NCBI RefSeq assembly: GCF_003018255.1
Contig: NZ_CP027440.1
Source: Escherichia coli
Lineage (GTDB): Bacteria > Pseudomonadota > Gammaproteobacteria > Enterobacterales > Enterobacteriaceae
DNA: 64,000 nucleotides
Reading direction: 5' to 3' (one strand)
Shown one piece after another: positions 4,661 through 62,076 of this stretch; within the stretch, counting starts at the first letter, position 1; each line of letters begins with the position of its first letter. Both the position numbers and the translations under genes were made by a program. The notes below the pieces were generated by a model, which was not told the DNA's origin, did not search any database, and saw only the letters and a program-made list of their open reading frames with translations.

Positions 4661-6649
4661 CTACTTTTCTTCCAGGTAACTCTCTTCGAAGATTTCAATA
4701 GGGAGTGGGCGAGCAAAAAGGAAGCCCTGGGCAATACCAACGCCCGCTTTTGCCAGCCAGTCGCGTTGTGCTTCAGTCTCCACGCCTTCGGCAATCATTT
4801 GTAAGTTCAGGCTTTGCGCCAACATGATAATTGCAGCAATCATGCTGCTATCTTCCGGCAAGCCTTCAACAAACATTTTGTCGATTTTCAGTACGTCGAT
4901 TGGCAACGATTTCATATGCTGCAGCTGACGCAGCCCTGCGTAGCCCATGCCGAAATCATCCAGCGCCACCCGAACTCCGGCATTGCGCAGCGGACGGAGG
5001 ATTGCCACCGCAGCATGAGGGTCGTCAATACGTCGGCTTTCTGTCACTTCCAGAATCAGTGTTCCCGGCTGAATGCGATAGCGGGTTAACAGTTCCAGCA
5101 TATCCGCTACCATATTCGGGTGCATCAGTTGTAGCGCTGAGAGGTTTACCGACAAGGGCAGCATAATGCCGCGCTCTTGCCAGGCAGCAAGCAGTCGACA
5201 AGACTCTTCCAGCACCCAGTGACCAACGGTAACCATCAGCCCACAGCACTCAATGCGATCGATTAAGCCATCCGGCAGATCCCAACTGCCATCCGGTTGC
5301 TGGATACGCAGTAACACTTCCGCACTGACCAGTTTACCGCTGGTCATCTCGACCTGTGGCTGTAACCAAATCGCAAATTGATGATTTTCCAGTGCATTAA
5401 GGATATCGCTCTCTTCCGTCAACCGCTGCTGGGCGGCTTCCATCTGCTGCGGATCAAAGAACTGAATCTGATTTTTGCCTTTATGGCGAGCGGTAAATGC
5501 CGCAGAAATAGCGCGACTGTAAAGCTGTTCGGCGGTGAGATCGCCGTAGAACATCGCCACGCCAATGCTACAGTGCGGACGGAGTTGAATACGTTCAATC
5601 GGCAGGCGCTCGCTCATGATAGTGAGCACTTGCTGACCTAATGTGATAGCGTGCCACGGTTCCTGTACACCGTTGGCAATGACAGCAAAGTCATAACCGC
5701 TAATCTGCGCGAGGATCATGCGTGGCGACAGTACCGATTTGAGTTTTTCCACCAGCGTCAGCAGCAGAATTTCTCGTTGCGCCTCTTTCAGCACGCCCGC
5801 AGTATCACGCAGGGTTTCACAGGTGATGATCATCAGCGCGGTGGTTTGTTTACGCGCGACAACCTGCTCCAGCATCTCCATCAGCAAGGCTTTGTTCGGC
5901 AAATCCGACACCGGGAAGCGCATCGCGTTTTCGTTCTGTTCTTCATAATGGCGCTGCAGCAATTGCTGGTTGAGGTTGTAACTGCGCACCAGCATACCGA
6001 TTTCATCGTCCTGATGCAGACGTGGTAATGCCAGTTGGTGACCAACAAGCTCCTGGGCTGGGATGGCGTTAAGTTCGCGAGCAATATTGCGTAACGGATG
6101 TAAAATCAGTCGATTAATACACCAGCTGATGGCGACGGTCAGGATAAGCGACAAAAGTAAGTAAATGGTCACTAACGTTGAGAGGGTGCTCATCACGAAC
6201 TTATACATACGGAAGGAATCCGCCTGTAGCACCAGATAGGCAATTGGCTGCGGATTTGCCGGACGTTCGAGCGAGTAGACGCCCAGCGAGATTTGAACCG
6301 GTAGCTCAAACAGGCGAGTAACCATTACCGGCACCGGACGCTCTGGAATAAAACTTTTACGCAGCGCCTGGAACTGGTTGGGCAGCACCACATCGGCACG
6401 GCTGACCACGCCTGCCGGTTTAATGCTGGCAAGAATAGCTTCCGCTTCGGGAATATCGCCTTTCAAAATAGCTGAAGATAAGGGTTCGCGGACAGAGCGA
6501 GCAATGCTTTCCAGTTGCGTAGCCGTGTTATAGCGATTCTGCTGGACCAGATGGAACAGCAAAACGGTGCAAAAAATAAAAACGAACACCAGGACAACGG
6601 CTGCCACCATTGCCATCTGCTTGATTGTTAACGAGCGACTTACGCGCAA
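4661..6649 (-). CDS. pdeK: c-di-GMP phosphodiesterase PdeK (YhjK), HAMP-GGDEF-EAL membrane protein
   Basis: 662-aa ORF with an N-terminal TM segment, a degenerate GGDEF region and a C-terminal EAL domain (EVTE...[10 protein letters not shown]...KIDKMFV). Confidence 0.9.
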
Positions 6650-6730
6650 ATTGTCTCCCCCCGGAAATCCCAGATTGCCGCCCGAGTATACCCGATCGCA
6701 GCGGCATTAAGAGAGGCGCTATCTGAAAAC

Positions 6731-9700
6731 TTACCAGTCGGCGTAAGGTATCAGCGGCTGCGGCGGTAAATCCATGTCACCCTGCCATCCGGCGGCGGAA
6801 TAACGTACGTAGAGCAGGAAATGGCTGGGTGCGTAATCTTTCGCCTGCTGGATATCAATTGCCGTGCCGACAAACCAGTTGGAAGTAACACGTCGTTCAA
6901 GTAATGCCCGCGCCGTATAGCCGAAGCCCTGACTGCTGCCGCCATCGTTGGATTGCCGCGCAGCTTCTTCCTGCCAGTCGGTCGGGATCAGATTCATCAG
7001 CGGATAACGCGGCATGGTTTTGGTGCGTGAATGCGACCACGAGCCAGACGCCCCCAGCTCCCACGACCAGTTTTCCGTGCGCTCCCGCCACATCACCGGT
7101 ATGGCAAACGACAGGTATTCCTGCGGGCTGTAGTAACCGCCCTGACCGAGTGAGTAGCCACTCAGGTCTTTGTCGTAATGCCAGATCATGTTGTTCAGGC
7201 CGATTGTGACGCGGCGATTGTTCTGGTTAATGACCTTATAGTAATAGCCCGTCATCCAGCGCACACGCCAGTTATCTTCGACATTTTTACCGGTTAACTG
7301 GTCGCCACTAAGCGATGCCCAGACGCCGTTTGCTTCACCTTTATCGTAGCTCAGGCTTAGCCCCACGCCGTCGGCACGCACGCCGCCCCATTTTTTCCCG
7401 GTATTGCTCGGGGAGTCTTTTTGCCCACCAAAGGCCAGCAAAGAACTGGAGATGGGCCGACGGTGGGCGTTAACGGTGTAACCCAGCGGCCCGATATCAT
7501 CGCTGTAACTGATGCCGCCGACCACATCCACCACGTTGAAGCCCATCGGCGTGGTGCCGATATCCCAGCTCCAGGTGTCGTTGCGCCAACCGACCGCCAC
7601 GCTGGCACCGGAATCCGACTGGCTGCGGTTGCCGCTACAGTCCTGTAATGTACAGGTGCCCCAGTTGTCATCCCATTTACCATCGGCATTAGTGGAGAAA
7701 CTGCCGACGTTCATATTGACGAAATCACTGCGAAAGAACATCCGCCCGTCAGAATACGGCGCATCCACCTGCAACATGGTAGTGTGCGCTTTCAGATCGG
7801 AGTAACCACCGGTGCCGCTCGAACCCCAGTAATCATGCTCAAGGGTGACGTTAAGATCCTGCTGGCGATAGAGGTCCGCCGCATCGCTGCGCACGCCGCG
7901 TTTCAGCCAGTCATCTTTCTCGTCATTGCGGGTCAGTCGGGTAAAGGTGTCGTTATCCAGCGGACGCGTCGTGGTCACACCGGATGCAACCATCGCGTCT
8001 TTGTAGGTTTCCAGCGCCTGCGTTGGATCGCCCGCCTGCGCTTCAAACTTCGCACCATCACGCAGTACCATCGCACTTTCCATCGACGGCGGCTGAGATT
8101 TTGCCAGCGGGATCAACTTATTAAACGTCTGCTGCGCCGCTGCGGTATCGCCAAGCTGCGCCTGTGCCAGCGCCACGCGCCGCTGAGTGTTCAGCGAGGC
8201 GTTATCGGTGGCAGGCAGCTTCGCCAGCTGGCTACGTGCCGCCGCTTTGTCACCGGCAGCAATATCCACTTCCGTCAGACCAAGAATGGCATCGGCGTTA
8301 GTTGGCTCCCGCGTCAGGACATTCTGATATGCAGCGCGAGCGGCGGTGTAATCACGTCGTTGTTGCGCCCAGTCAGCCAGCGTGAGGTCTATGCGCGTGG
8401 AAGGTGGTTGCTGGCGCAGCATCGCTTCCGCTTCAGCTTCTTTGCCGCTTTCTCGCAGGCGATTAGCGGTTTCCAACACCTGATCGCTTTGCAGTCGATT
8501 AACCAGCTCCTGAATATTGCTGCTCCACTGCGCGCGCGGCAGGCTGTTGATATGCGCCAGCGCCGCTCTGTCCTGGTCATGACCAGAGAGATACAGCCCG
8601 TAAGCGTAAACCTGCTCCGGGTCGTTCGGCTTCTGCTGCGCCAGATTACGCATTAACGTATCGGCCTGGCTGCGTTGTCCGGCCTGGCTGCGTTGTCCGG
8701 CCTGCCAGAGATCCTGTGAAAGTCGGTAAGTAATCCATACACTGCCGGGGTCCAGCGCCAGTCGTTGCCGCTGAAGTGCTGCCGCCTGCGCCCATTTCCC
8801 CTGGTTTTCCAGTGCCTCTGCCTGCTGTGCCAGACGGTCGTTTTGCAGGCTGCGTTCGATATCATCAATGCTGCGCCGCTGACTGGCAGAGAGCGAGGCG
8901 ATAAACGCTTCGGCTTTTTCTGGCGACTGCTGGCGGTAAATATTTGCCAGCCCGCGCACGGCGTTAGTGTTGCTACTGTCCATACGCAGCGTCTGCTGGT
9001 AATAGCGTTCAGCGGCGGGGTAATCTTTGCGTGCCATCGCCACATCGCCCAGCCCCAGCACCGCATAGCTGTCGGTGTTATCGACATTACGTGCCTGCTG
9101 GAACAACCGTTCCGCCCGGTCAGGATTATTGGCTTTCAGCGCAGCATCGCCCTGCTGGATTGCCAGCCAGTAGCGGTTTACTTTCAGCAGACTGTTCCAT
9201 TTGTCGTTGTTGCTGCTGTGCGGGTCCAGGGCGAGGGCTTTTTCCAGATTCGCCACCGCATTGGCGCGATCGCCTTTCTGAGAATACGCCTGGCCCAGCG
9301 CCCCCAGAGTCTCACTGTCTTTCGGGTTCGCCCGCACCGCCTGTTGTAGTTCGGGAATGGCTTTACCCGCCATACCAGAGTCCACCGCCGCTAAACCTTG
9401 CGCACGAGCGCGGAAAGCAGGGTCGGCCAGCTGTTTTTGCTGTTCTGCCAGTTGCGATTGTGCAGCCGCCACGCTATCGCCATCGCTAAAGATCGAGAGA
9501 TATTTTTTCAGCGCCGACACGCTGGCATCGCTGACGGGCATGTCTTTAATCTGCCCGTACCAGATTTTAGAGGCCCCCTCGCGCCCGGCGTTTGATTTCG
9601 CCATCTGTTCCAGGACAGCAAAACCTTCGTCACGGCGATCGCTACTAAACAGCAATAGCGCCAGATTGTTTTGCAGGCCCGTATTGCCCGGCGTATCCGC

Positions 9701-17506: not shown

Positions 17507-19078
17507 ATGAGGGACATTGTGGACCCTGTATTCTCTATCGGTATCTCATCATTATGGGATGAGCTGCGACATATGCCAGCAGGCGGCGTCTGGTGGTTTA
17601 ACGTCGATCGCCATGAAGATGCTATCAGTCTGGCGAATCAAACAATTGCATCCCAGGCTGAAACCGCACACGTCGCGGTCATTAGCATGGACAGCGATCC
17701 AGCGAAAATCTTTCAATTAGATGATTCTCAAGGGCCGGGAAAAATAACATTATTTTCAATGCTAAATCATGAAAAAGGTCTATACTATTTGGCCCGTGAT
17801 TTGCAGTGTTCTATTGATCCCCATAATTACCTTTTTATTCTTGTTTGCGCAAATAACGCATGGCAAAACATTCCTGCCGAGCGGCTTCGCTCATGGTTGG
17901 ATAAAATGAATAAATGGAGCCGGCTAAACCATTGTTCGCTTTTGGTAATTAATTCCGGAAATAATAACGATAAACAATTTTCATTGTTACTTGAGGAATA
18001 CCGTTCACTTTTTGGTCTTGCCAGTTTGCGTTTTCAGGGCGACCAACATTTGCTGGATATTGCTTTCTGGTGCAACGAAAAAGGGGTCAGCGCCCGTCAG
18101 CAGCTTAGCGTTCAGCAACAAAATGGTTGCTGGACATTAGTTCAACACCAGGAGGCGGAAATCCAACCACGCAGCGACGAAAAACGCATTCTGAGTAATG
18201 TTGCTGTACTGGAAGGTGCGCCGCCGCTATCGGAACACTGGCAACTGTTCAACAATAACGAAGTCCTGTTCAATGAAGCCCGTACCGCTCAGGCGGCGAC
18301 GGTGGTCTTTTCTTTACAGCAAAATGCACAAATCGAGCCACTGGCCCGCAGCATTCATACTCTGCGTCGCCAGCGCGGTAGTGCGATGAAAATCCTCGCA
18401 CGGGAAAATACCGCCAGCCTGCGCGCCACCGATGAACGTTTATTATTGGCCTGCGGTGCAAATATGGTTATCCCGTGGAATGCGCCACTCTCCCGCTGTC
18501 TGACGATGATCGAAAGCGTGCAAGGGCAGAAGTTTAGTCGCTATGTGCCGGAAGATATCACTACCTTGCTGTCAATGACCCAGCCGCTCAAACTGCGTGG
18601 TTTCCAGAAGTGGGATGTGTTCTGTAATGCCGTCAACAACATGATGAATAACCCTCTATTACCTGCCCACGGTAAAGGCGTTCTGGTTGCCCTACGTCCG
18701 GTACCGGGTATCCGCGTTGAGCAAGCCCTGACGCTATGTCGCCCTAACCGTACCGGCGATATCATGACCATTGGCGGTAATCGGCTGGTGCTGTTTCTCT
18801 CATTCTGTCGGATTAACGATCTGGATACCGCGTTGAATCATATTTTCCCATTGCCTACTGGCGACATTTTCTCAAACCGAATGGTCTGGTTTGAAGATGA
18901 TCAAATCAGTGCCGAGCTGGTGCAGATGCGCCTGCTTGCCCCAGAACAATGGGGCATGCCGCTGCCTTTAGCGCAAAGTTCTAAACCGGTCATCAATGCC
19001 GAGCACGATGGTCGCCACTGGCGACGAATACCAGAACCAATGCGACTGTTAGATGATGCTGTGGAGCGCTCATCATGA
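17507..19078 (+). CDS. bcsE: c-di-GMP-binding cellulose biosynthesis protein BcsE (GIL domain)
   Basis: 523-aa [41 protein letters not shown]..., matching recalled BcsE. Confidence 0.9.
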
Positions 19079-19266
19079 TGACCATCAGCGATATCATTGA
19101 AATTATTGTCGTTTGCGCACTGATATTTTTCCCGCTGGGCTATCTGGCGCGGCACTCTTTGCGACGCATTCGCGACACCTTACGTTTGTTCTTTGCTAAA
19201 CCTCGTTATGTTAAACCGGCCGGGACGTTACGCCGCACGGAAAAAGCCAGGGCAACCAAAAAATGA
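19075..19266 (+). CDS. bcsF: small membrane protein BcsF
   Basis: 63-aa [38 protein letters not shown]... with a single TM helix; 4-nt overlaps with bcsE and bcsG. Confidence 0.85.
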
Positions 19267-20943
19267 CTCAATTTACGCAAAATACCGCCATGCCTTCTTC
19301 CCTCTGGCAATACTGGCGCGGCCTTTCCGGCTGGAACTTCTATTTTCTGGTTAAGTTCGGCCTGTTGTGGGCGGGATATCTTAACTTCCATCCGCTCCTC
19401 AATCTGGTGTTTGCCGCGTTTCTGCTGATGCCCATTCCGCGCTACAGCCTGCATCGCTTGCGCCACTGGATTGCCCTGCCGATCGGCTTTGCTTTGTTCT
19501 GGCATGACACCTGGTTGCCTGGCCCGGAAAGCATAATGAGCCAGGGTTCGCAGGTGGCGGGGTTCAGTACCGATTATTTAATCGATCTTGTCACACGCTT
19601 TATTAACTGGCAGATGATTGGGGCCATTTTTGTTTTATTCGTGGCCTGGTTATTCCTGTCACAATGGATTCGCATTACCGTTTTTGTGGTTGCCATTCTG
19701 CTATGGCTGAACGTACTTACCCTGGCGGGACCAAGTTTCTCCTTGTGGCCAGCCGGTCAACCGACGACCACTGTAACAACGACGGGTGGTAACGCAGCGG
19801 CAACCGTTGCGGCGACGGGTGGCGCACCGGTAGTGGGTGATATACCCGCACAAACTGCACCGCCAACAACAGCAAACCTTAACGCCTGGCTGAATAATTT
19901 CTATAACGCGGAGGCGAAACGTAAATCGATCTTCCCGTCTTCGCTGCCCGCTGATGCTCAGCCATTTGAACTACTGGTGATTAATATCTGTTCGCTTTCC
20001 TGGTCGGATATTGAAGCCGCCGGATTAGATGTCGCATCCACTGTGGTCGCATTTCGATATTGAGTTCAAGAACTTTAACTCCGCCACCTCCTACAGTGGC
20101 CCGGCGGCGATCCGTTTACTGCGCGCCAGCTGCGGGCAGACTTCGCACACTAATCTGTATCAACCGGCAAATAACGACTGCTATCTGTTTGATAACCTGT
20201 CGAAACTGGGCTTTACCCAGCACCTGATGATGGGACATAACGGCCAGTTCGGTGGTTTTTTGAAGGAAGTTCGCGAAAATGGCGGCATGCAGAGCGAATT
20301 GATGGATCAAACAAATCTGCCGGTTATTTTGCTGGGCTTTGATGGTTCGCCGGTTTATGACGATACCGCCGTGCTTAACCGTTGGCTGGACGTTACCGAA
20401 AAAGATAAAAACAGCCGTAGTGCCACGTTCTACAACACGCTTCCACTGCATGACGGCAACCATTATCCGGGCGTCAGCAAAACAGCGGATTACAAAGCGC
20501 GGGCGCAAAAATTCTTTGATGAACTGGACGCCTTCTTTACTGAACTGGAGAAATCGGGTCGTAAAGTGATGGTGGTCGTGGTGCCGGAACACGGCGGCGC
20601 GCTGAAGGGCGACAGAATGCAGGTATCTGGCCTACGTGATATCCCTAGCCCGTCTATCACAGACGTCCCCGTTGGGGTGAAATTCTTCGGCATGAAGGCA
20701 CCACATCAGGGGGCACCGATTGTCATCGACCAACCGAGCAGCTTCCTGGCTATCTCCGATCTGGTGGTTCGCGTTCTTGATGGCAAGATTTTCTCCGAAG
20801 ACAATGTTGACTGGAAAAAACTCACCAGTGGGTTGCCACAAACAGCACCGGTCTCCGAGAACTCAAATGCAGTAGTTATTCAATACCAGGATAAACCGTA
20901 CGTTCGCCTGAACGGCGGCGACTGGGTGCCTTACCCGCAATAA
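19263..20943 (+). pseudogene. bcsG: bcsG (cellulose phosphoethanolamine transferase) disrupted by a +1 frameshift
   Basis: Two out-of-frame overlapping ORFs, 19263..20063 (266 aa, membrane domain) and 20029..20943 (304 aa, catalytic domain), total 559 codons after removing the 35-nt overlap. The junction reads GGATTAGATGTCG where an intact frame needs GGATTAATGTCG (extra G near 20028). Confidence 0.75.
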
Positions 20944-21029
20944 GAACGAAAAAGGCCGCAGAGTTTCACCCCTGCGGCCTGATCCGGGCGCAAATTGCCA
21001 TTACGGCAGCCTGACGCCCGCATGACACG

Positions 21030-21137
21030 TTACTTCCGCTTGTTCAGCCAGTTCACGATCATGCTGGCAAGAATGCCAGCAATGATCGGAGCCGCTAAAT
21101 CATGCCAGAAGGCCATGCCCAGTTCTGCGAGCGTCAT
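21030..21137 (-). CDS. ldr: Ldr-family type I toxin, copy 1 (35 aa)
   Basis: MTLAELGMAFWHDLAAPIIAGILASMIVNWLNKRK, the C-terminal 35 aa of the 80-aa track ORF; LdrD-like single-TM peptide. Terminator hairpin AGGCCGCAG...CTGCGGCCT with T-tract just 3' at about 20950..20985. Confidence 0.8.
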   Translation of the reverse strand: MTLAELGMAFWHDLAAPIIAGILASMIVNWLNKRK

Positions 21138-21184
21138 ATAGCCGCCTGTGTTGTAATGACAACGTTTCGCGGCTATTCTTGAGT

Positions 21185-21250
21185 TGTTTGGGTTCAAGAA
21201 TGGCCCCCGTGGTGTTGTCAGGTGCATACCTGCAACGTGCGGGGGTTTTC
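21185..21250 (+). ncRNA. rdl: Rdl-like antisense RNA, copy 1 (boundaries approximate)
   Basis: Plus-strand hairpin GCCCCCG...CGGGGG followed by TTTTCTCT (21203..21249), antisense to the ldr leader; 5' end estimated from the roughly 66-nt Rdl length. Confidence 0.45.
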
Positions 21251-21512
21251 TCTCTCCAGCAAACAATGCCACCAGGGATTAAGCCCCCGCAACATTGCGC
21301 CTCACCGGAACCTTTCCGGCTTGCCGCTGATTCTACGACTGTTTTTCTGCTCCGGAATCCGTCACGTCTTCACTCTGTGCTGCGCATTCCGCAGAATATT
21401 ATCCGCTTGCAACCGTTGCATTTTTCTTACGAAAAAGGCCGCAGAGTTTTATCCCTGCGGCCTGATCCGGGCGCAACTTGCCATTACGGCAGCCTGACGC
21501 CCGTCTGACACG

Positions 21513-21620
21513 TTACTTCCGCTTATTCAGCCAGTTCACGATCATGCTGGCAAGAATGCCAGCAATGACCGGAGCCGCTAAATCATGCCAGAAGGCCATG
21601 CCCAGCTCTGCGAGCGTCAT
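21513..21620 (-). CDS. ldr: Ldr-family type I toxin, copy 2 (35 aa)
   Basis: MTLAELGMAFWHDLAAPVIAGILASMIVNWLNKRK; I18V relative to copy 1. Confidence 0.8.
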   Translation of the reverse strand: MTLAELGMAFWHDLAAPVIAGILASMIVNWLNKRK

Positions 21621-21667
21621 ATAGCCGCCTGAGTTGTAATGACAACGTTTCGCGGCTATTCTTGAAT

Positions 21668-21733
21668 GGTCTAGATGCAAGAATGGCCCCCGTGGTGTTG
21701 TCAGGTGCATACCTGCAACGTGCGGGGGTTTTC
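21668..21733 (+). ncRNA. rdl: Rdl-like antisense RNA, copy 2 (boundaries approximate)
   Basis: Same hairpin and T-tract 483 bp downstream of copy 1. Confidence 0.4.
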
Positions 21734-21995
21734 TCTCTCCAGCAACCAATGCCACCAGGGATTAAGCCCCCGCAACATTGCGCCTCACCGGAACCTTTCC
21801 GGCTTGCCGCTGATTCTACGACTGTTTTTCTGTTCCGGAATCCATCACTTCTTCACTCTGTGCTGCGCATTCCGCAGAATATTATCCGCTTGCAACCGTT
21901 GCATTTTTCTTACGAAAAAGGCCGCAGAGTTTTATCCCTGCGGCCTGGTCCGGGCGCAAATTGCCATTACGGCAGCCTGACGCCCGTCTGACACG

Positions 21996-22103
21996 TTACT
22001 TCCGCTTATTCAGCCAGTTCACGATCATGCTGGCAAGAATGCCAGCAATGACCGGAGCCGCTAAATCATGCCAGAAGGCCATGCCCAGCTCTGCGAGCGT
22101 CAT
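21996..22103 (-). CDS. ldr: Ldr-family type I toxin, copy 3 (35 aa)
   Basis: MTLAELGMAFWHDLAAPVIAGILASMIVNWLNKRK; identical in protein to copy 2. Confidence 0.8.
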   Translation of the reverse strand: MTLAELGMAFWHDLAAPVIAGILASMIVNWLNKRK

Positions 22104-22150
22104 ATAGCCGCCTGAGTTGTAATGACAACGTTTCGCGGCTATTCTTGAGT

Positions 22151-22216
22151 TGTGTAGGTTCAAGAATGGCCCCCGTGATGTTGTCAGGTGCATACCTGCA
22201 ATATGCGGGGGTTTTC
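22151..22216 (+). ncRNA. rdl: Rdl-like antisense RNA, copy 3 (boundaries approximate)
   Basis: Same hairpin and T-tract in the third unit. Confidence 0.4.
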
Positions 22217-22478
22217 TCTCTCCAGCAACCAATGCCACCAGGGATTAAGCCCCCGCAACATTGCGCCTCACCGGAACCTTTCCGGCTTGCCGCTGATTCT
22301 ACGACTGTTTTTCAGCTCCGAAATCCGTCACTTCTTCACTCTGTGCTGTGCATTCCGCAGAATATTATCCGCTTGCAACCGTTGCATTTTTCTTACGAAA
22401 AAGGCCGCAGAGTTTTATCCCTGCGGCCTGATCCGGGCGCAAATTGCCATTACGGCAGCCTGACGCCCGTCTGACACG

Positions 22479-22586
22479 TTACTTCCGCTTGTTCAGCCAG
22501 TTCACGATCAGACTGGCAAGAATGCCAGCTATGACCGGAGCCGCTAAATCATGCCAGAAGGCCATGCCCAGTTCTGCGAGCGTCAT
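22479..22586 (-). CDS. ldr: Ldr-family type I toxin, copy 4 (35 aa)
   Basis: MTLAELGMAFWHDLAAPVIAGILASLIVNWLNKRK; M26L relative to copies 2 and 3. Confidence 0.8.
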   Translation of the reverse strand: MTLAELGMAFWHDLAAPVIAGILASLIVNWLNKRK

Positions 22587-22633
22587 ATAGCCGCCTGTGT
22601 TGTAATGACAACGTTTCGCGGCTATTCTTGAGT

Positions 22634-22699
22634 GGTCTAGGTTCAAGATTAGCCCCCGTGATGTTGTCAGGTGCATACCTGCAACGTGCGGGGGTTTTC
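22634..22699 (+). ncRNA. rdl: Rdl-like antisense RNA, copy 4 (boundaries approximate)
   Basis: Same hairpin and T-tract in the fourth unit. Confidence 0.4.
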
Positions 22700-23061
22700 T
22701 CTCTCCAGCAACCAATGCCACCAGGGATTAAGCCCCCGCAACATTGCGCCTCACCGGAACCTTTCCGGCTTGCCGCTGATTTTACGATTGCTTTTTACCG
22801 TCAGCACCCGGCAATCTTCCTCATTGCGTGATGCCTTCCAGCTTAATTTCTTTATTTGCATTAGTTGCAGTTCATATCCGGGCTGACTCCAGACTGGTAG
22901 TGAAATGCGCAATTTTGTAGAATTGCGCCTCCTCGCGACCTCCCCAGTGAATCTGTTGCCTCATTTTTTACATACTGCGTATTCGACTTCTCCACCTGTT
23001 GCGCAAGAGAAACTGGGTTTATTCATTTTTGCGAGGCCGACTTCTTTCTGGACAGGACTTT

Positions 23062-24333
23062 ATGCAGCACAACACACTACCGAAACACGATCAGAAAATG
23101 CCGTTTACACGCTACGACTTCGGCTGGGTTTTATTATGCATAGGCATGGCGATTGGTGCCGGAACCGTGCTGATGCCAGTACAAATTGGCTTGAAGGGAA
23201 TTTGGGTATTTATTACCGCAGCGATCATTGCTTATCCTGCCACCTGGGTAGTGCAGGACATTTATTTAAAAACCCTTTCTGAAAGCGATTCCTGTAATGA
23301 CTACACCGATATTATCAGTCATTACCTGGGGAAGAACTGGGGAATTTTCCTCGGGGTTATCTACTTTTTGATGATTATCCACGGGATTTTTATCTACTCT
23401 CTCTCCGTGGTTTTCGACAGCGCCTCGTACCTGAAAACCTTCGGTTTAACCGATGCCGATCTTTCACAATCTCTACTTTATAAAGTCGCCATTTTCGCCG
23501 TACTGGTGGCAATTGCGTCTGGTGGTGAACGATTACTGTTTAAGATTTCCGGGCCAATGGTGGTGGTCAAAGTAGGGATTATTGTCGTCTTCGGTTTTGC
23601 GATGATCCCGCACTGGAATTTCGCCAATATAACCGCCTTCCCGCAAGCCTCCGTCTTCTTCCGCGACGTCCTGCTTACTATTCCTTTTTGCTTCTTTTCT
23701 GCGGTATTTATTCAGGTGCTAAACCCGATGAATATTGCCTACCGCAAACGGGAAGCGGATAAAGTACTGGCAACCCGGCTCGCGCTGCGTACCCACCGAA
23801 TTAGTTATGTCACGCTCATCGCGGTGATCCTATTTTTTGCCTTTTCGTTTACCTTCTCAATTAGCCACGAAGAAGCCGTTTCTGCCTTTGAACAAAATAT
23901 CTCGGCACTGGCACTGGCCGCGCAGGTGATCCCTGGGCATATCATTCATATCACCTCGACGGTGCTGAATATCTTTGCCGTACTGACCGCATTCTTTGGC
24001 ATTTATCTCGGTTTCCACGAGGCCATTAAAGGCATTATTCTCAATCTGTTAAGCCGAATTATTGATACCAAGAAAATTAACTCACGCATGCTGACTCTGG
24101 CGATCTGCGCTTTTATCGTCATTACGTTGACGATTTGGGTCTCGTTTCGTGTATCGGTGCTGGTGTTCTTTCAGTTGGGAAGCCCGTTATATGGCATTGT
24201 GTCGTGCCTCATTCCATTTTTCCTGATCTATAAAGTCGCACAACTGGAAAAACTTCGCGGGTTTAAAGCCTGGCTGATTCTGCTTTACGGCATTTTGCTA
24301 TGCTTGTCGCCACTGTTGAAGCTGATTGAGTAA
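23062..24333 (+). CDS. yhjV: HAAAP-family (serine/aromatic amino acid-type) transporter YhjV
   Basis: ORF 22999..24333; internal ATG at 23062 gives [34 protein letters not shown]..., a multi-TM permease matching recalled YhjV. Confidence 0.88.
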
Positions 24334-24362
24334 ACCGGAGCGCACGGCCCCGGTTTTGTGAG

Positions 24363-25367
24363 TTAACGCTGCGGATTTTCATCCTGATCAACAGCAAAAC
24401 AAGCTACCAGTTGACCGCCGTAGTCTTTTAGCTGCGGCTGCAACTGGGTGCAGGGGCCGAAGCGCCGACGACAGCGGGCGTTAAACGCGCAGCCCGGCGG
24501 TGGATTGAGCGGGCTTGGCAGTTCACCGGTGAGCTTGATGCGCTCGCGGCGATCGTCCGGGTTCAGGCGCGGCGTCGCGGAGAGTAGCGCCTGAGTGTAC
24601 GGATGACGCGGGTTATTGAAGATTTGGTCCTTCGTTCCCTTCTCCACGCAGCGGCCCAGGTACATCACCATCACTTCATCAGCAATGTGCTCTACCACCG
24701 ACAGGTCGTGCGAGATAAAGACATAAGACAGCCCCAACTCCTGCTGCAAATCCATCATCAGATTCAGCACCTGCGCGCGCACTGAGACGTCCAGCGCGGA
24801 AACCGGCTCATCGGCAATCACCACATCCGGGTCGAGCATCAGACCTCGGGCAATGGCGATACGCTGACGCTGACCGCCGGAGAACATATGCGGATAGCGG
24901 TCATAATGTTCGGTTTTCAGGCCGACTTTCGCCATCATCGACAGGGCTTTTTCCCGACGCTGTTCTTTGCTTAAGCTGGTATTAATCAGCAGCGGCTCCT
25001 CAAGAATTTGCCCGACTTTTTTACGTGGATTCAGCGAACCGTAAGGGTTCTGGAAGACAATCTGGATTTTCTGCCGACGCAGCTTCTGCGCCTGCGGATC
25101 GTGCTTGAGCAGATCCTGCCCTTGGTAATACAGTTCACCACCGGTGGGCGTTTCGATCATCGTCAGCAACCGACCGAGGGTCGATTTACCGCAGCCAGAT
25201 TCCCCTACTACCGCCAGCGTTTTGCCGCGTTCAAGGTTAAACGAAACGCCGTCCAGCGCTTTAACCAAACGTTCCGGCGCGAACATACCTTTCTTCACCG
25301 GATAATGTTTTTTCAGGTCGATAGCCTGCAACAGCGGTTGTTGCGAGGTGGCCTCTTGCGTACTCAT
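24363..25367 (-). CDS. dppF: dipeptide ABC transporter ATP-binding protein DppF
   Basis: 334-aa ORF with Walker [13 protein letters not shown] signature LSGGQRQR and Walker B; 4-nt overlap with dppD. Confidence 0.95.
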
Positions 25368-26347
25368 AGTGTCGGCCTCCCGGCATCATCAAGTGGGTAA
25401 TGGCATTTGGACTGACGCCCGTCAGCAAGCATATTCAGCGCCGGTTCTTCAGCGCGACATCTGTCAGTGGCATAGGGGCAGCGCGGGTTAAGCAGGCAGC
25501 CGTTCGGGCGGTCATACTTGCCGGGAACAACACCTGGCAACGACGCCAGACGTTCTTTATCCTGAGCAAATTCTGGCAGCGCACGCAGCAATGCCTGAGT
25601 ATACGGGTGACGCGGCGCATGGAAGATGGCGTGCGCATCGCCCGTTTCCACCACCTGACCGGCATACATCACGATGATTTTATGTGCCGCTTCCGCCACC
25701 AGCGCCAGGTCATGGGTAATTAACACCAGCGCCATGTTCTCTTTCTGCTGTAGCTCCAGCAGTAGTTCAATGATTTGCGCCTGAATGGTCACGTCCAGCG
25801 CAGTGGTTGGTTCATCGGCAATCAGCAGTTTTGGCCGACAGGCAATCGCCATGGCAATCATCACGCGCTGGCTCATGCCGCCGGAAAGCTGATGCGGGTA
25901 AACATCCAGACGCGAAGCCGGATCGGGAATACCGACCTGATTCAACAAGTCAATCGCCCGCTGACGACGAGTGCTCTTATTACCGCCCTGATGCACCTTA
26001 ATCGCTTCCATAATCTGGAAACCCACGGTGTAGCACGGGTTAAGGCTGGTCATCGGGTCCTGGAAGATCATCGCCACTTCGGCACCCACAAGGTTGCGGC
26101 GCTCTTTTTCCGAGATACGCTGCAAATCCTGACCGTTAAACTCCAGCTTTTCCGCCATTACGCGGCCCGGATAATCAATCAGCCCCATAATCGCCAGCGA
26201 ACTGACCGATTTACCAGAGCCGGACTCACCCACAATCCCGACCACTTCGCCCTGTTTTACGCTGTAGCTGATGCGGTCTACGGCGCGGAACGGTGCGCTT
26301 TCGTCGCCGAAATGCACCGATAATTTATCTACATTTAATAACGCCAT
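25364..26347 (-). CDS. dppD: dipeptide ABC transporter ATP-binding protein DppD
   Basis: 327-aa ORF with Walker A GESGSGKS and signature LSGGMSQR. Confidence 0.95.
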
Positions 26348-28384: not shown

Positions 28385-28562
28385 TGCTGCCGGATGGCGC
28401 TGCACGCAGAGGCACAGCGCCACCGGGTATGCAGATTGTTGACAAAGAGCGCTTTGTTTATGCCGGATGCGGCGCAAACGCCTTATCCGACCTACAAAAT
28501 CGTGCAAACTCAATACATTGCAGAGTTTTCGTAGGCCTGATAAGCGGAGCGCATCAGGCAGT
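28385..28562. repeat. REP/BIME cluster in the dppB-dppA intergenic region
   Basis: Several REP-like palindromes: TGCCGGATGGCGCTGCACGC..., GCCGGATGCGGCGCAAACGCCTTATCCGACCTACA, GTAGGCCTGATAAGCGGAGCGCATCAGGCA. Confidence 0.7.
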
Positions 28563-30767: not shown

Positions 30768-30858
30768 TGTGTAGATCGAATAAGGCGTTCACGCCGCATC
30801 CGACAATAAGTGCGGTGCCGTTGCCTGATGCGACGCTGGCGCGTCTTATCAGACCTAC
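30768..30858. repeat. REP element pair
   Basis: GTAGATCGAATAAGGCGTTCACGCCGCATCCGACA and TGCCTGATGCGACGCTGGCGCGTCTTATCAGACCTAC are canonical REP-type palindromes. Confidence 0.65.
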
Positions 30859-30966
30859 GTCGAGTCGAACCTCCCCGCCCCCGGGGGTTCTCTTCCTCAT
30901 GAGCTACAGATGCAAAAAAGCCTGCTCGTTGAGCAGGCTTTTCGAATTTGGTCGGTGATAGAGGAT
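30859..30966. repeat. 108-bp direct repeat, distal copy (hairpin-terminator plus 19-nt tRNA-Pro 3'-end fragment)
   Basis: Near-identical to 31027..31134 at an offset of 168 bp; contains GCAAAAAAGCCTGCTCGTTGAGCAGGCTTTT and TGGTCGGTGATAGAGGATT, then diverges from the tRNA body. Confidence 0.85.
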
Positions 30967-31026
30967 TACTCGCCACTTCGTGGCTCGCCCTGCGGGCCGT
31001 TGCTGGCGCAACGTTCTCTCGCTTCG

Positions 31027-31192
<166 letters not shown>

Positions 31193-31284
31193 GAATGCGG
31201 GGCGCATCTTACTGCGCAGATACGCCCTCGTCAATCCCTTAATAGCAAAATGCCTTTTGATCGGCGAGAAAGTCAGCAGGCCTC

Positions 31285-42382: not shown

Positions 42383-42390
42383 GCACATCA

Positions 42391-42549
42391 ACGGTTTGAC
42401 GTACAGACCATTAAAGCAGTGTAGTAAGGCAAGTCCCTTCAAGAGTTATCGTTGATACCCCTCGTAGTGCACATTCCTTTAACGCTTCAAAATCTGTAAA
42501 GCACGCCATATCGCCGAAAGGCACACTTAATTATTAAAGGTAATATACT
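42391..42549 (+). promoter_or_regulatory. cspA 159-nt 5' UTR (cold-box / RNA thermosensor leader)
   Basis: Sequence from ACGGTTTGACGTACAGACCATTAAAG... to the ATG matches the recalled cspA leader. Confidence 0.75.
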
Positions 42550-42762
42550 ATGTCCGGTAAAATGACTGGTATCGTAAAATGGTTCAACGCTGACAAAGGC
42601 TTCGGCTTCATCACTCCTGACGATGGCTCTAAAGACGTGTTCGTACACTTCTCTGCTATCCAGAACGATGGTTACAAATCTCTGGACGAAGGTCAGAAAG
42701 TGTCCTTCACCATCGAAAGCGGCGCTAAAGGCCCGGCAGCTGGTAACGTAACCAGCCTGTAA
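42550..42762 (+). CDS. cspA: major cold shock protein CspA
   Basis: 70-aa [73 protein letters not shown] with RNP1/RNP2 motifs. Confidence 0.97.
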
Positions 42763-42791
42763 TCTCTGCTTAAAAGCACAGAATCTAAGAT

Positions 42792-42817
42792 CCCTGCCAT
42801 TTGGCGGGGATTTTTTT
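42792..42817 (+). terminator. cspA intrinsic terminator
   Basis: CCCTGCCATTTGGCGGGG hairpin followed by ATTTTTTTATTTGTTTTT. Confidence 0.7.
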
Positions 42818-42949: not shown

Positions 42950-43102
42950 TTACTCTTTCAAATTGCAGGCTAAAAATGCCGCCAGCTCATAACTTCCCTG
43001 TTTAATATGCAATTCACACAGTGAATCTCTTACCATCCAGGTAAAAAATAAAAGCGTGAAACAAATCACTATTAAAGAAAGCAATCTATATTTCTGCGGC
43101 AT
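42950..43102 (-). CDS. hokA: Hok-family type I toxin HokA (50 aa)
   Basis: MPQKYRLLSLIVICFTLLFFTWMVRDSLCELHIKQGSYELAAFLACNLKE, a single-TM Hok/Gef-family peptide; ATG at 43100..43102. Confidence 0.8.
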   Translation of the reverse strand: MPQKYRLLSLIVICFTLLFFTWMVRDSLCELHIKQGSYELAAFLACNLKE

Positions 43103-43162
43103 TCCCAGCCTCCTGTGTTGATTTCCAACGAGTAAGAGGCTAACCTTATGGTGTTCAGGCAT
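42950..43162 (-). CDS. mokA: MokA, the N-terminally extended reading frame of the hok locus
   Basis: 70-aa ORF in the same frame as, and ending with, the Hok peptide; analogous to the mok/hok arrangement. Confidence 0.55.
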   Translation of the reverse strand: MPEHHKVSLLLVGNQHRRLGMPQKYRLLSLIVICFTLLFFTWMVRDSLCELHIKQGSYELAAFLACNLKE

Positions 43163-43380
43163 AGGGTAGCCTCACTTTGATTTATAGTCAGGTGGGGCTT
43201 TTCTCTGTCTGCCTTTCGGTGAATACCTGAGACAAACAGTCTCAAGCACCCACAGCTATTCTAGCTTAATAAGTTCGTTTCTTCTCCTTGATATAATCCT
43301 AAAAAAATCTCATAAAATTAATATATGAGACAATCTTTATTCAGCAGAAGATTATTAAAGGTTGCTCTATTATTTAGCGA

Positions 43381-61974: not shown

Positions 61975-62076
61975 TGCCTGATGCGCTACGCTTATCAGGC
62001 CTACATGATTTCTGCAATATATTGAATTTGGTAGAATTTGTAGGCCGGATAAGGCGTTTTAGCCGCATCCGGCATA
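61975..62076. repeat. REP elements between avtA and ysaA
   Basis: GCCTGATGCGCTACGCTTATCAGGCCTACA and GTAGGCCGGATAAGGCGTTTTAGCCGCATCCGGCA are canonical REP palindromes. Confidence 0.7.

Follow-up and report, generated by a model that had tools for sequence, protein, structure and literature searches.

The window, a 64,000-nucleotide stretch of contig NZ_CP027440.1 from Escherichia coli, carries a tandem array of four ldr/rdl units between the stop codon of bcsG (20941–20943) and the upstream region of yhjV, the flanking genes being named from the RefSeq annotation of 99.9%-identical genomes. Tandem Repeats Finder gives a single array (period 483, 3.8 copies, 96% matches, no indels, score 3420), and the repeat finder returns four in-register copies with spacing 483/483/483. 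The initial annotation had described a four-copy head-to-tail ldr/rdl array with a 483-bp unit, each unit having a terminator hairpin, a 35-residue Ldr on the minus strand and an Rdl on the plus strand. The two repeat searches, the reading frames, the Rfam matches and the terminators agree with this in all four units; its location is correct, but its coordinates (20945–22795) are off by one base (20946–22796 by Tandem Repeats Finder). The core common to all units is the first 401 nt in plus-strand register, and the cores differ pairwise by 10–18 substitutions (2.5–4.5%). The last 83 nt of the unit form an inter-unit spacer found in units 1–3 only (94–96% similar to one another). Unit 4 continues into the unique yhjV-side flank, like the single K-12 unit; its equivalent of the spacer (22796–22877) is flank in common with K-12 and only about 48% alike to the spacer. 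The functional modules are complete in all four units, although unit 4 is without the spacer. The features are collected in Table 1.

Table 1. Features of the tandem array in window coordinates
Feature	Position	Strand	Basis
Whole tandem array, four LDR-D-type units	20946–22796	-	Tandem Repeats Finder, direct repeats, alignment with K-12 LDR-D
Unit 1 intrinsic terminator of the ldr mRNA, AGGCCGCAGGG-loop-CTCTGCGGCCT then TTTTT	20953–20980	-	Hairpin scan
Unit 1 ldr, 35 aa: MTLAELGMAFWHDLAAPIIAGILASMIVNWLNKRK	21030–21137	-	ORF; Pfam PF13940; RefSeq WP_000170735.1 in a 99.9%-identical genome
Unit 1 Rdl, 66 nt	21186–21251	+	Rfam RF01813, 84.6 bits; fold -30.1 kcal/mol, z -3.6
25-codon upstream ORF in the ldr 5' UTR	21218–21295; copies 21701–21778, 22184–22261, 22667–22744	-	
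Putative ldr -10 box, TAGAAT	21330–21335	-	Read by eye from sequence
Putative -10 box copies	TAGAAT 21813–21818, 22296–22301; TAAAAT 22779–22784	-	Read by eye
83-nt inter-unit spacer upstream of the unit 1 core	21346–21428; other copies 21829–21911, 22312–22394	-	Alignment
Unit 2 terminator	21436–21463	-	Terminator-like hairpin
Unit 2 ldr, 35 aa: MTLAELGMAFWHDLAAPVIAGILASMIVNWLNKRK	21513–21620	-	ORF; WP_001295224.1
Unit 2 predicted hairpin over the ldr Shine–Dalgarno sequence (AUAGCCGC ... AGGCGGCUAU)	21621–21659	-	Minimum-free-energy fold
Equivalent Shine–Dalgarno hairpin stretches	21138–21176, 22104–22142, 22587–22625	-	
Unit 2 Rdl	21669–21734	+	Rfam RF01813, 81.8 bits; fold
Unit 3 terminator	21919–21946	-	Terminator-like hairpin
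Unit 3 ldr, peptide identical to unit 2	21996–22103	-	ORF
Unit 3 Rdl	22152–22217	+	Rfam RF01813, 79.7 bits; fold -30.8 kcal/mol, z -4.95
Unit 4 terminator	22402–22429	-	Terminator-like hairpin
Unit 4 ldr, 35 aa: MTLAELGMAFWHDLAAPVIAGILASLIVNWLNKRK	22479–22586	-	ORF; WP_000170738.1
Unit 4 Rdl	22635–22700	+	Rfam RF01813, 90.4 bits; alignment

The 35-codon ldr reading frame is intact on the minus strand of all four units. Ldr family members are hydrophobic toxins of 35 residues with one transmembrane helix, a conserved tryptophan and a basic C-terminus. The unit 1 peptide matches Pfam Ldr_toxin PF13940 over its full length (1–35 of 35, E=1.3e-26); the other three peptides show one or two conservative residue changes relative to it (V/I, M/L), the array holding three Ldr variants. 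A search of NCBIfam with the three peptides gave no family at E≤0.01. The identical proteins in RefSeq bear the name 'type I toxin-antitoxin system toxin Ldr family protein', and four Ldr genes are annotated at the site in a 99.9%-identical genome. On the plus strand, Rfam rdlD (RF01813) gives four full-length matches of 79.7–90.4 bits against a gathering score of 50. PF13940 and RF01813 together confirm the type I toxin–antitoxin identity assigned by the initial annotation. Each Rdl begins on the opposite strand 49 nt past the ldr start codon, which it does not overlap, and is complementary to the ldr 5' UTR. The predicted fold of all four consists of a free 5' tail, a long imperfect hairpin and a U-rich 3' end (-30.1 to -31.7 kcal/mol, z -3.6 to -4.95). 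The unit 3 Rdl has two substitutions in the 3' stem arm, and its predicted stem-loop is still stable; the unit 4 Rdl is by alignment the nearest of the four to K-12 RdlD.

The unit 1 terminator lies 10 nt past the bcsG stop codon; bcsG itself has a possible frameshift around position 20027. We infer the positions of the ldr promoters from -10-like hexamers; a consensus sigma-70 promoter scan of the array region found no site above threshold. The upstream (-35) region of units 1–3 is unlike that of unit 4 and K-12 in the alignment, and the expression of the internal units could differ for this reason. The putative ldr mRNA, 376 nt between its presumed ends, has a minimum-free-energy fold of -175.4 kcal/mol (z -7.7). 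The 5' UTR contains a 25-codon upstream reading frame, MLRGLNPWWH[C/W]LLERENPR[T/I]LQVCT, with the Shine–Dalgarno sequence GGUGAGG just before it and its 3' part under Rdl. This frame is kept in all units from the bcsG–yhjV site (D-site) and in K-12 ldrA/B, is frameshifted in ldrC and may be the 'ldrX' leader that has been proposed. An N-terminally extended Ldr of 65 residues, starting at an ATG opposite the Rdl loop, was also considered as 'ldrX' and rejected, as the frame is not conserved: it has an in-frame stop in units 1 and 4 of 19M19, the ATG is absent in unit 2 of WL297, and the frame is closed in ldrABC.

The distinct upstream spacer of units 1–3 and the null result of the promoter scan would fit an array in partial decay, with one unit working (for example unit 4, which has the K-12-type promoter region) and the others silent relics; chromosomal type I loci, such as copies of hok, are often inactivated (PMC2887945). 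We regard this as unlikely. In each of the four units the reading frame is intact, and the terminator, the -10-like hexamer and a full-scoring Rdl are all present. Variation over 38 distinct units is lowest in the ldr coding sequence and in the part of the 5' UTR upstream of Rdl, a pattern suggestive of purifying selection. RNA-seq served to annotate the RdlD RNAs of BL21(DE3), a strain with three pairs here (PMC5435950).

The array is very probably the LDR-D locus in a four-unit allelic state, consisting of four complete, slightly diverged type I modules. The present analysis establishes how the array is built, which family it belongs to, how frequent it is in the population and how old it is. 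Each unit would produce, from the minus strand, a stable and highly structured ldr mRNA of about 370 nt encoding a 35-residue inner-membrane toxin; a local hairpin in this mRNA is predicted to sequester the ribosome-binding site. The plus strand of each unit would give a 66-nt Rdl complementary to the 5' UTR upstream of the start codon. We infer the transcript ends, the sequestration of the ribosome-binding site and the expression of all four units. By analogy with K-12 ldrD/rdlD, pairing of Rdl with the mRNA would leave Ldr untranslated, and the duplex would be cut by RNase III; in K-12, LdrD acts as a toxin under post-transcriptional repression by RdlD (PMC4147584), and the ldrD–rdlD double-stranded RNA is cleaved by RNase III in vivo (PMC7373196). 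Ldr, if made, would be expected from the K-12 ldrD and ldrA literature to damage the membrane and stop ATP synthesis, leading to growth arrest or death. LdrA and LdrD are membrane toxins that stop ATP synthesis; they are called pore-forming, with the pores presumed rather than demonstrated (PMC12643268).

The frequency of this state was determined in 60 evenly spaced records from 5,427 complete E. coli records (58 informative), with the number of units taken from the flank-to-flank distance between bcsG and yhjV. The site holds one unit in 23 records, two in 5, three in 19 and four in 12 (about 21%), in a collection biased to clinical and laboratory strains; no array of more than four units occurs among the 60 records. 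The same four-unit array, at 99.8–99.9% identity, is present in at least 40 independent complete genomes, with sources including humans, poultry, pig, dog and river water. Distant backgrounds (flanks 97.3–98.3% identical) also have four-unit arrays, with different unit sequences. A 2017 paper describes three ldrD/rdlD pairs between bcsG and yhjV in BL21(DE3) (PMC5435950). To the initial annotation the array had looked like a locus-specific copy-number expansion; compared across E. coli genomes, the four-copy array proves to be common, and the reading as a noteworthy expansion is not supported. The single ldrD of K-12 is one common state and not the species norm, as about 60% of the sampled complete genomes have two to four units. 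Many clinical and avian strains have as many as three further paralogues, each carrying its own Rdl tail, which studies of Ldr in K-12 overlook.

For comparison across genomes, units were extracted by blastn, since diverged units escaped a strict regular expression for the ldr 3' end. The units are 93.5–97.8% identical to LDR-D-site units of other genomes. In a neighbour-joining tree of 51 units, the D-site units form a single clade, within which partial positional orthology and mosaicism are seen; simple positional orthology of units across strains was rejected on this basis. The same site holds two units in Escherichia sp. E1V33, spaced 483 bp, and a single unit in E. whittamii. An exact 23-mer of the Rdl stem-loop, scanned against species-representative genomes, matched only three loci and missed the E. 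coli representative; so small a number does not allow the ancestral copy number to be reconstructed. The ldr–rdl loci are known to be repeated within one intergenic region and to evolve by lineage-specific duplication (PMC2887945). Judged from the sequences, the array is old and not recent, because its units differ by 2.5–4.5% and another Escherichia has two units with the same 483-bp spacing; the 10–18 substitutions between cores likewise place the duplications far back. The copy number of one to four is very probably an old Escherichia polymorphism that persists and is rearranged through unequal crossing-over and gene conversion among the units.

That one K-12-like ldrD unit was amplified recently in a particular strain or lineage, the view first taken of this locus, is very improbable. 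Tandem repeats are easily expanded by unequal recombination, and K-12, O157:H7 and LF82 carry one unit, but the divergence within the array equals or exceeds that between units of different E. coli lineages, and the inter-unit spacer has little identity with the K-12 upstream flank. The four-unit arrays of different sequence in several distant backgrounds and the two units of the other Escherichia species speak against it as well. That the four units are a mis-assembly of a truly lower or higher number, a risk raised in the initial annotation, is scarcely credible: short-read assemblers do collapse 483-bp tandem repeats, and a 503-bp contig of an LDR unit junction at 0.66x coverage occurs in an unrelated 'Bacillus sp.' draft assembly, but the copies are distinguishable in an assembly by their 10–18 substitutions, by four different Rdl tails and by three Ldr variants, and the same order of the four variants recurs in the 40 or more independently sequenced genomes. 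The locus will collapse in short-read assemblies, and the 'Bacillus sp.' contig illustrates how such repeats break out of them. The four-unit state of LDR-D is an ordinary, already annotated variant; the element, the tandem layout and the copy-number variation at the site are all documented, and the discovery value is small.

The Rdl 5' tails differ in all four units of the window. Among the four units, 5 of 16 positions in the tail are variable against 23 of 385 elsewhere (Fisher p=0.003), and when 38 distinct units from 16 genomes are compared, the 16-nt stretch of the core with the most variation is the one spanning the Rdl start site and tail. Predicted tail duplexes are stronger for cognate pairs (-34 to -37 kcal/mol) than for non-cognate pairs (-18 to -30 kcal/mol). 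The tail, presumed to be the region of first contact, may have diversified under selection that matches each antitoxin to its own toxin mRNA, making the four units semi-orthogonal pairs; we put this forward only tentatively. If it were true, the length of the array would set the number of independently triggerable toxin switches. The remaining 46 nt of Rdl hardly differ from unit to unit, so cross-repression may well persist. The Rdl promoter and start site also fall in the tail region, which could vary for other reasons. Among the papers searched, none on cognate discrimination by Rdl was found.

[quoted passage not shown] The ldrX leader was proposed by analogy with mok of hok/sok (PMC4147584), and the conserved 25-codon frame is present in the window units, where leader coupling is hypothetical; it differs from the hok/sok arrangement in having no overlap with the ldr start codon and in its frameshift in ldrC. 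The ibs/sib loci are also tandemly duplicated cis-antisense modules, with a toxin family unrelated to Ldr. Preferential matching of antitoxin to its own toxin mRNA is a feature of Sib/Ibs (PMC2943612), to which the clustering of changes in the Rdl 5' tail looks analogous. K-12 ldrABC/rdlABC is a tandem array of such modules, in which the antisense RNA lies on the other strand from the toxin, across from its 5' UTR; it lies elsewhere, between kdsA and chaA, in agreement with the initial annotation, has a 535-bp period and about 80% DNA identity to the window units over the 401-nt core, and encodes peptides of the LdrA/B/C subgroup. LdrA shares 74% identity with LdrD (PMC12643268). By site and sequence, the window units belong to the LdrD subgroup and not to LdrA/B/C. 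The BL21(DE3)/B locus has the same site and the same 483-bp tandem layout, with a published copy-number difference from K-12 (PMC5435950), but three units, only partly orthologous in sequence to those of the window. K-12 LDR-D (ldrD/rdlD; Kawano et al. 2002, as cited in PMC4147584 and PMC2887945) shares the bcsG–yhjV site, gene order and orientation, the same Rdl structure and terminator, and 95% identity of the unit cores over 401 nt. The K-12 MG1655 sequence has one unit there, again in agreement with the initial annotation, against four in the window; the peptides are one or two residues apart (MTF... in K-12, MTL... in the window), the 83-nt spacer replaces the K-12 upstream flank in the internal units, and each window unit has its own variant of the Rdl 5' tail.

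The array consists of four tandem ldr/rdl type I toxin–antitoxin units, numbered 1 to 4 from the bcsG side. Tandem Repeats Finder gives one array, 20946–22796 (period 483, 3.8 copies, 96% matches, zero indels), and a repeat finder places four copies in register at a spacing of exactly 483 bp. The four toxin ORFs give the peptide consensus MTLAELGMAFWHDLAAP[I/V]IAGILAS[M/L]IVNWLNKRK, and PF13940 (Pfam Ldr_toxin) covers the unit 1 peptide end to end (E = 1.3e-26). The four copies of the antisense RNA Rdl score 79.7–90.4 bits against RF01813 (gathering score 50); each is predicted to fold as a long hairpin with a free 5′ tail and a U-rich end (−30 to −32 kcal/mol, z −3.6 to −4.9). On the minus strand, every unit ends in a strong terminator hairpin and then TTTTT. 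A core of 401 nt is common to all four copies; the other 83 nt form the inter-unit spacer in units 1–3, while unit 4 runs on into the unique yhjV-side flank, as the single unit of K-12 does. The initial annotation is thus borne out for copy number by both repeat analyses, the four ORFs and the four RF01813 matches, for ldr/rdl identity by PF13940 and RF01813, and for the location between bcsG and yhjV by the RefSeq annotation of 99.9%-identical genomes.

Positions of the ldr/rdl genes and of other structured RNAs in the window
Feature	Position	Strand	Basis
ldr unit 1, 35 codons	21030–21137	minus	ORF
ldr unit 2, 35 codons	21513–21620	minus	ORF
ldr unit 3, 35 codons	21996–22103	minus	ORF
ldr unit 4, 35 codons	22479–22586	minus	ORF
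rdlD (RF01813) unit 1	21186–21251	plus	full-length Rfam match
rdlD (RF01813) unit 2	21669–21734	plus	full-length Rfam match
rdlD (RF01813) unit 3	22152–22217	plus	full-length Rfam match
rdlD (RF01813) unit 4	22635–22700	plus	full-length Rfam match
RtT RNA	30949–31082	minus	Rfam
tRNA	31120–31193	minus	Rfam
naRNA4	30774–30855	plus	Rfam
ES036 (CssrF), two matches	28496–28538 and 61997–62039		Rfam

MG1655 has a single ldrD/rdlD pair between bcsG and yhjV (the LDR-D locus, or D-site) and ldrA/rdlA, ldrB/rdlB and ldrC/rdlC in tandem between kdsA and chaA, in agreement with the initial annotation. The 3 kb left flank (bcsE–bcsG) joined to the 3 kb right flank (yhjV–dppD) was compared with all complete RefSeq E. 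coli genomes, the flank-to-flank distance serving as a ruler for unit number. The locus is intact in 5,315 genomes. Size classes were counted in 60 records taken at even steps through the ranking: 23 have one unit (insert about 401 bp; one also with IS1), 5 have two (about 873–884 bp), 19 have three (about 1,365–1,368 bp, including the separately resolved strain C8) and 12 have four (about 1,850–1,852 bp); none of the sampled records has more than four, and one lacks a usable locus. The single-unit class includes several K-12 or laboratory derivatives. On these counts, four units are found in roughly a fifth of complete genomes and three in roughly a third. The four variants of the window occur in identical order in at least 40 complete genomes (99.8–99.9% identity), whose sources were humans, poultry, pig, dog and river water; every genome sharing the array has four Ldr genes in its RefSeq annotation, and 61 records reach at least 99% identity over 20400–23400. 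A transcriptome paper gives one ldrD/rdlD pair at this site in K-12 and three in BL21(DE3) (PMC5435950), and three were confirmed in a B-strain genome. Fozo et al. (PMC2887945) describe ldr-rdl as repeats within one intergenic region with lineage-specific duplication, each genome holding 4 to 10 Ldr genes. The initial annotation had read the four units as an apparent locus-specific copy-number expansion, to be given up if reference genomes commonly had four copies here; as the comparison finds the four-copy state to be common, and the polymorphism is already in the literature, this reading is not supported. What looked like an expansion is a common and old allelic state of the LDR-D locus, one that has been published and is annotated routinely.

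Over the core, units differ pairwise by 2.5–4.5% (10–18 substitutions), a divergence no smaller than that of the flanks between E. coli lineages (flank identity 97.2–98.3%). A comparison of 51 units, taken from the window and from 16 further loci, placed those between bcsG and yhjV in a single tight clade, about 20% distant from K-12 ldrABC. Positional orthology is partial within this clade: one cluster unites the yhjV-proximal units of five strains, and another the bcsG-proximal units of four of these strains. Mosaicism is also clear, and the pattern is what an old array would be expected to show after reshuffling by unequal crossing-over and gene conversion. Beyond E. coli, E. whittamii carries a single unit, and Escherichia sp. 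E1V33 carries two at the same site, spaced 483 bp apart, with a bcsG 3′ end that is only 89% identical. Recent strain-specific amplification is thus very unlikely. Assembly collapse or expansion, also raised at the outset, is very unlikely because the copies are distinguishable from one another and the identical arrangement has been assembled independently many times. A 503-bp contig of a "Bacillus sp." draft assembly (NZ_JABWSY010000055.1, 0.66x coverage) consists of an LDR-D unit junction with 93–97% identity to the unit in the window. Contamination by E. coli is almost certainly its source, and it shows how short-read assembly collapses the array.

The neighbourhood also varies. In the window, bcsG (19263–20943) is 1,681 bp compared with 1,680, one added A at about 20027 dividing it into ORFs 19263–20063 and 20029–20943. 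The site reads "GGATTAGATG" in the window, "GGGTT-GATG" in K-12 and "GAGTT-GATG" in the closest genome, and the insertion is absent from all 5,300 complete E. coli genomes with the segment (best match 98.8% over 86 nt). The extra A is either a sequencing error or the mark of a strain-specific cellulose-modification pseudogene. Annotation elsewhere records a frameshift of bcsG in E110019 and an internal stop in strain C8 (NZ_CP192626.1). C8 (stretch 5920–7546) also has HipA-family toxin, HipA N-terminal domain and helix-turn-helix genes inserted between yhjV and dppF. In some APEC strains, an IS200C insertion in the bcsG–yhjV region splits the match in two. The closest complete genomes show 99.9% identity over 20400–23400 but only 99.5% over 6 kb of flanks (within 17946–25796); the collection therefore lacks the window's own strain, whose bcsE–G and/or yhjV–dppD flanks differ more than the array.

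Every unit retains a −10-like hexamer (TAGAAT in units 1–3, TAAAAT in unit 4), the Rdl target, the ORF and the terminator. Copies of the spacer lie upstream of the cores of units 1–3 (21346–21428, 21829–21911 and 22312–22394), whereas the upstream/−35 stretch of unit 4 (22796–22877) is K-12-type flank, about 48% identical to the spacer. As both this region and the −10 box differ, the internal units might be expressed or regulated differently from the yhjV-proximal one. No consensus promoter passed a scan of the array, and transcript ends were therefore inferred. The putative 376-nt unit 2 mRNA so delimited has a very stable predicted fold of −175 kcal/mol (z −7.7), in which the ldr Shine–Dalgarno (AGGCGGCUAU) pairs with upstream AUAGCCGC. 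All D-site units, and ldrA/B as well, keep an upstream ORF of 25 codons that has a good Shine–Dalgarno and whose 3′ part lies under Rdl. Coupling of this proposed leader, "ldrX", to ldr is left as a candidate only, since the ORF has a frameshift in ldrC and no overlap with the ldr start codon, and an in-frame ldr extension, the alternative "ldrX", was rejected as not conserved.

A second type I antitoxin RNA in the window, a sok match (RF01794, 124 bits; 43100–43251, minus), adjoins the cspA thermoregulator (RF01766, 498 bits; 42390–42817, plus) and presumably marks a hok/sok locus.

[quoted passage not shown] As inner-membrane toxins, LdrA and LdrD halt ATP synthesis, presumably by forming pores, and YajC neutralises them (PMC12643268). 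In the window, variable positions concentrate in the Rdl 5′ tail (5/16, compared with 23/385 elsewhere; Fisher p = 0.003), and all four tails differ. In a set of 38 distinct units drawn from 16 genomes, variability along the core peaks in a 16-nt stretch that covers the Rdl start site and tail, and it is lowest in the ldr ORF and in the 5′ UTR upstream of Rdl. A tail paired with its cognate mRNA is predicted at −34 to −37 kcal/mol, a non-cognate pairing at −18 to −30 kcal/mol; such a difference could make each Rdl prefer its own ldr mRNA. Cross-repression between units may persist, because the remainder of Rdl is nearly identical. A literature search found no published test of cognate discrimination for Rdl. 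The tail pattern resembles the discrimination between cognate pairs described for Sib/Ibs (PMC2943612).
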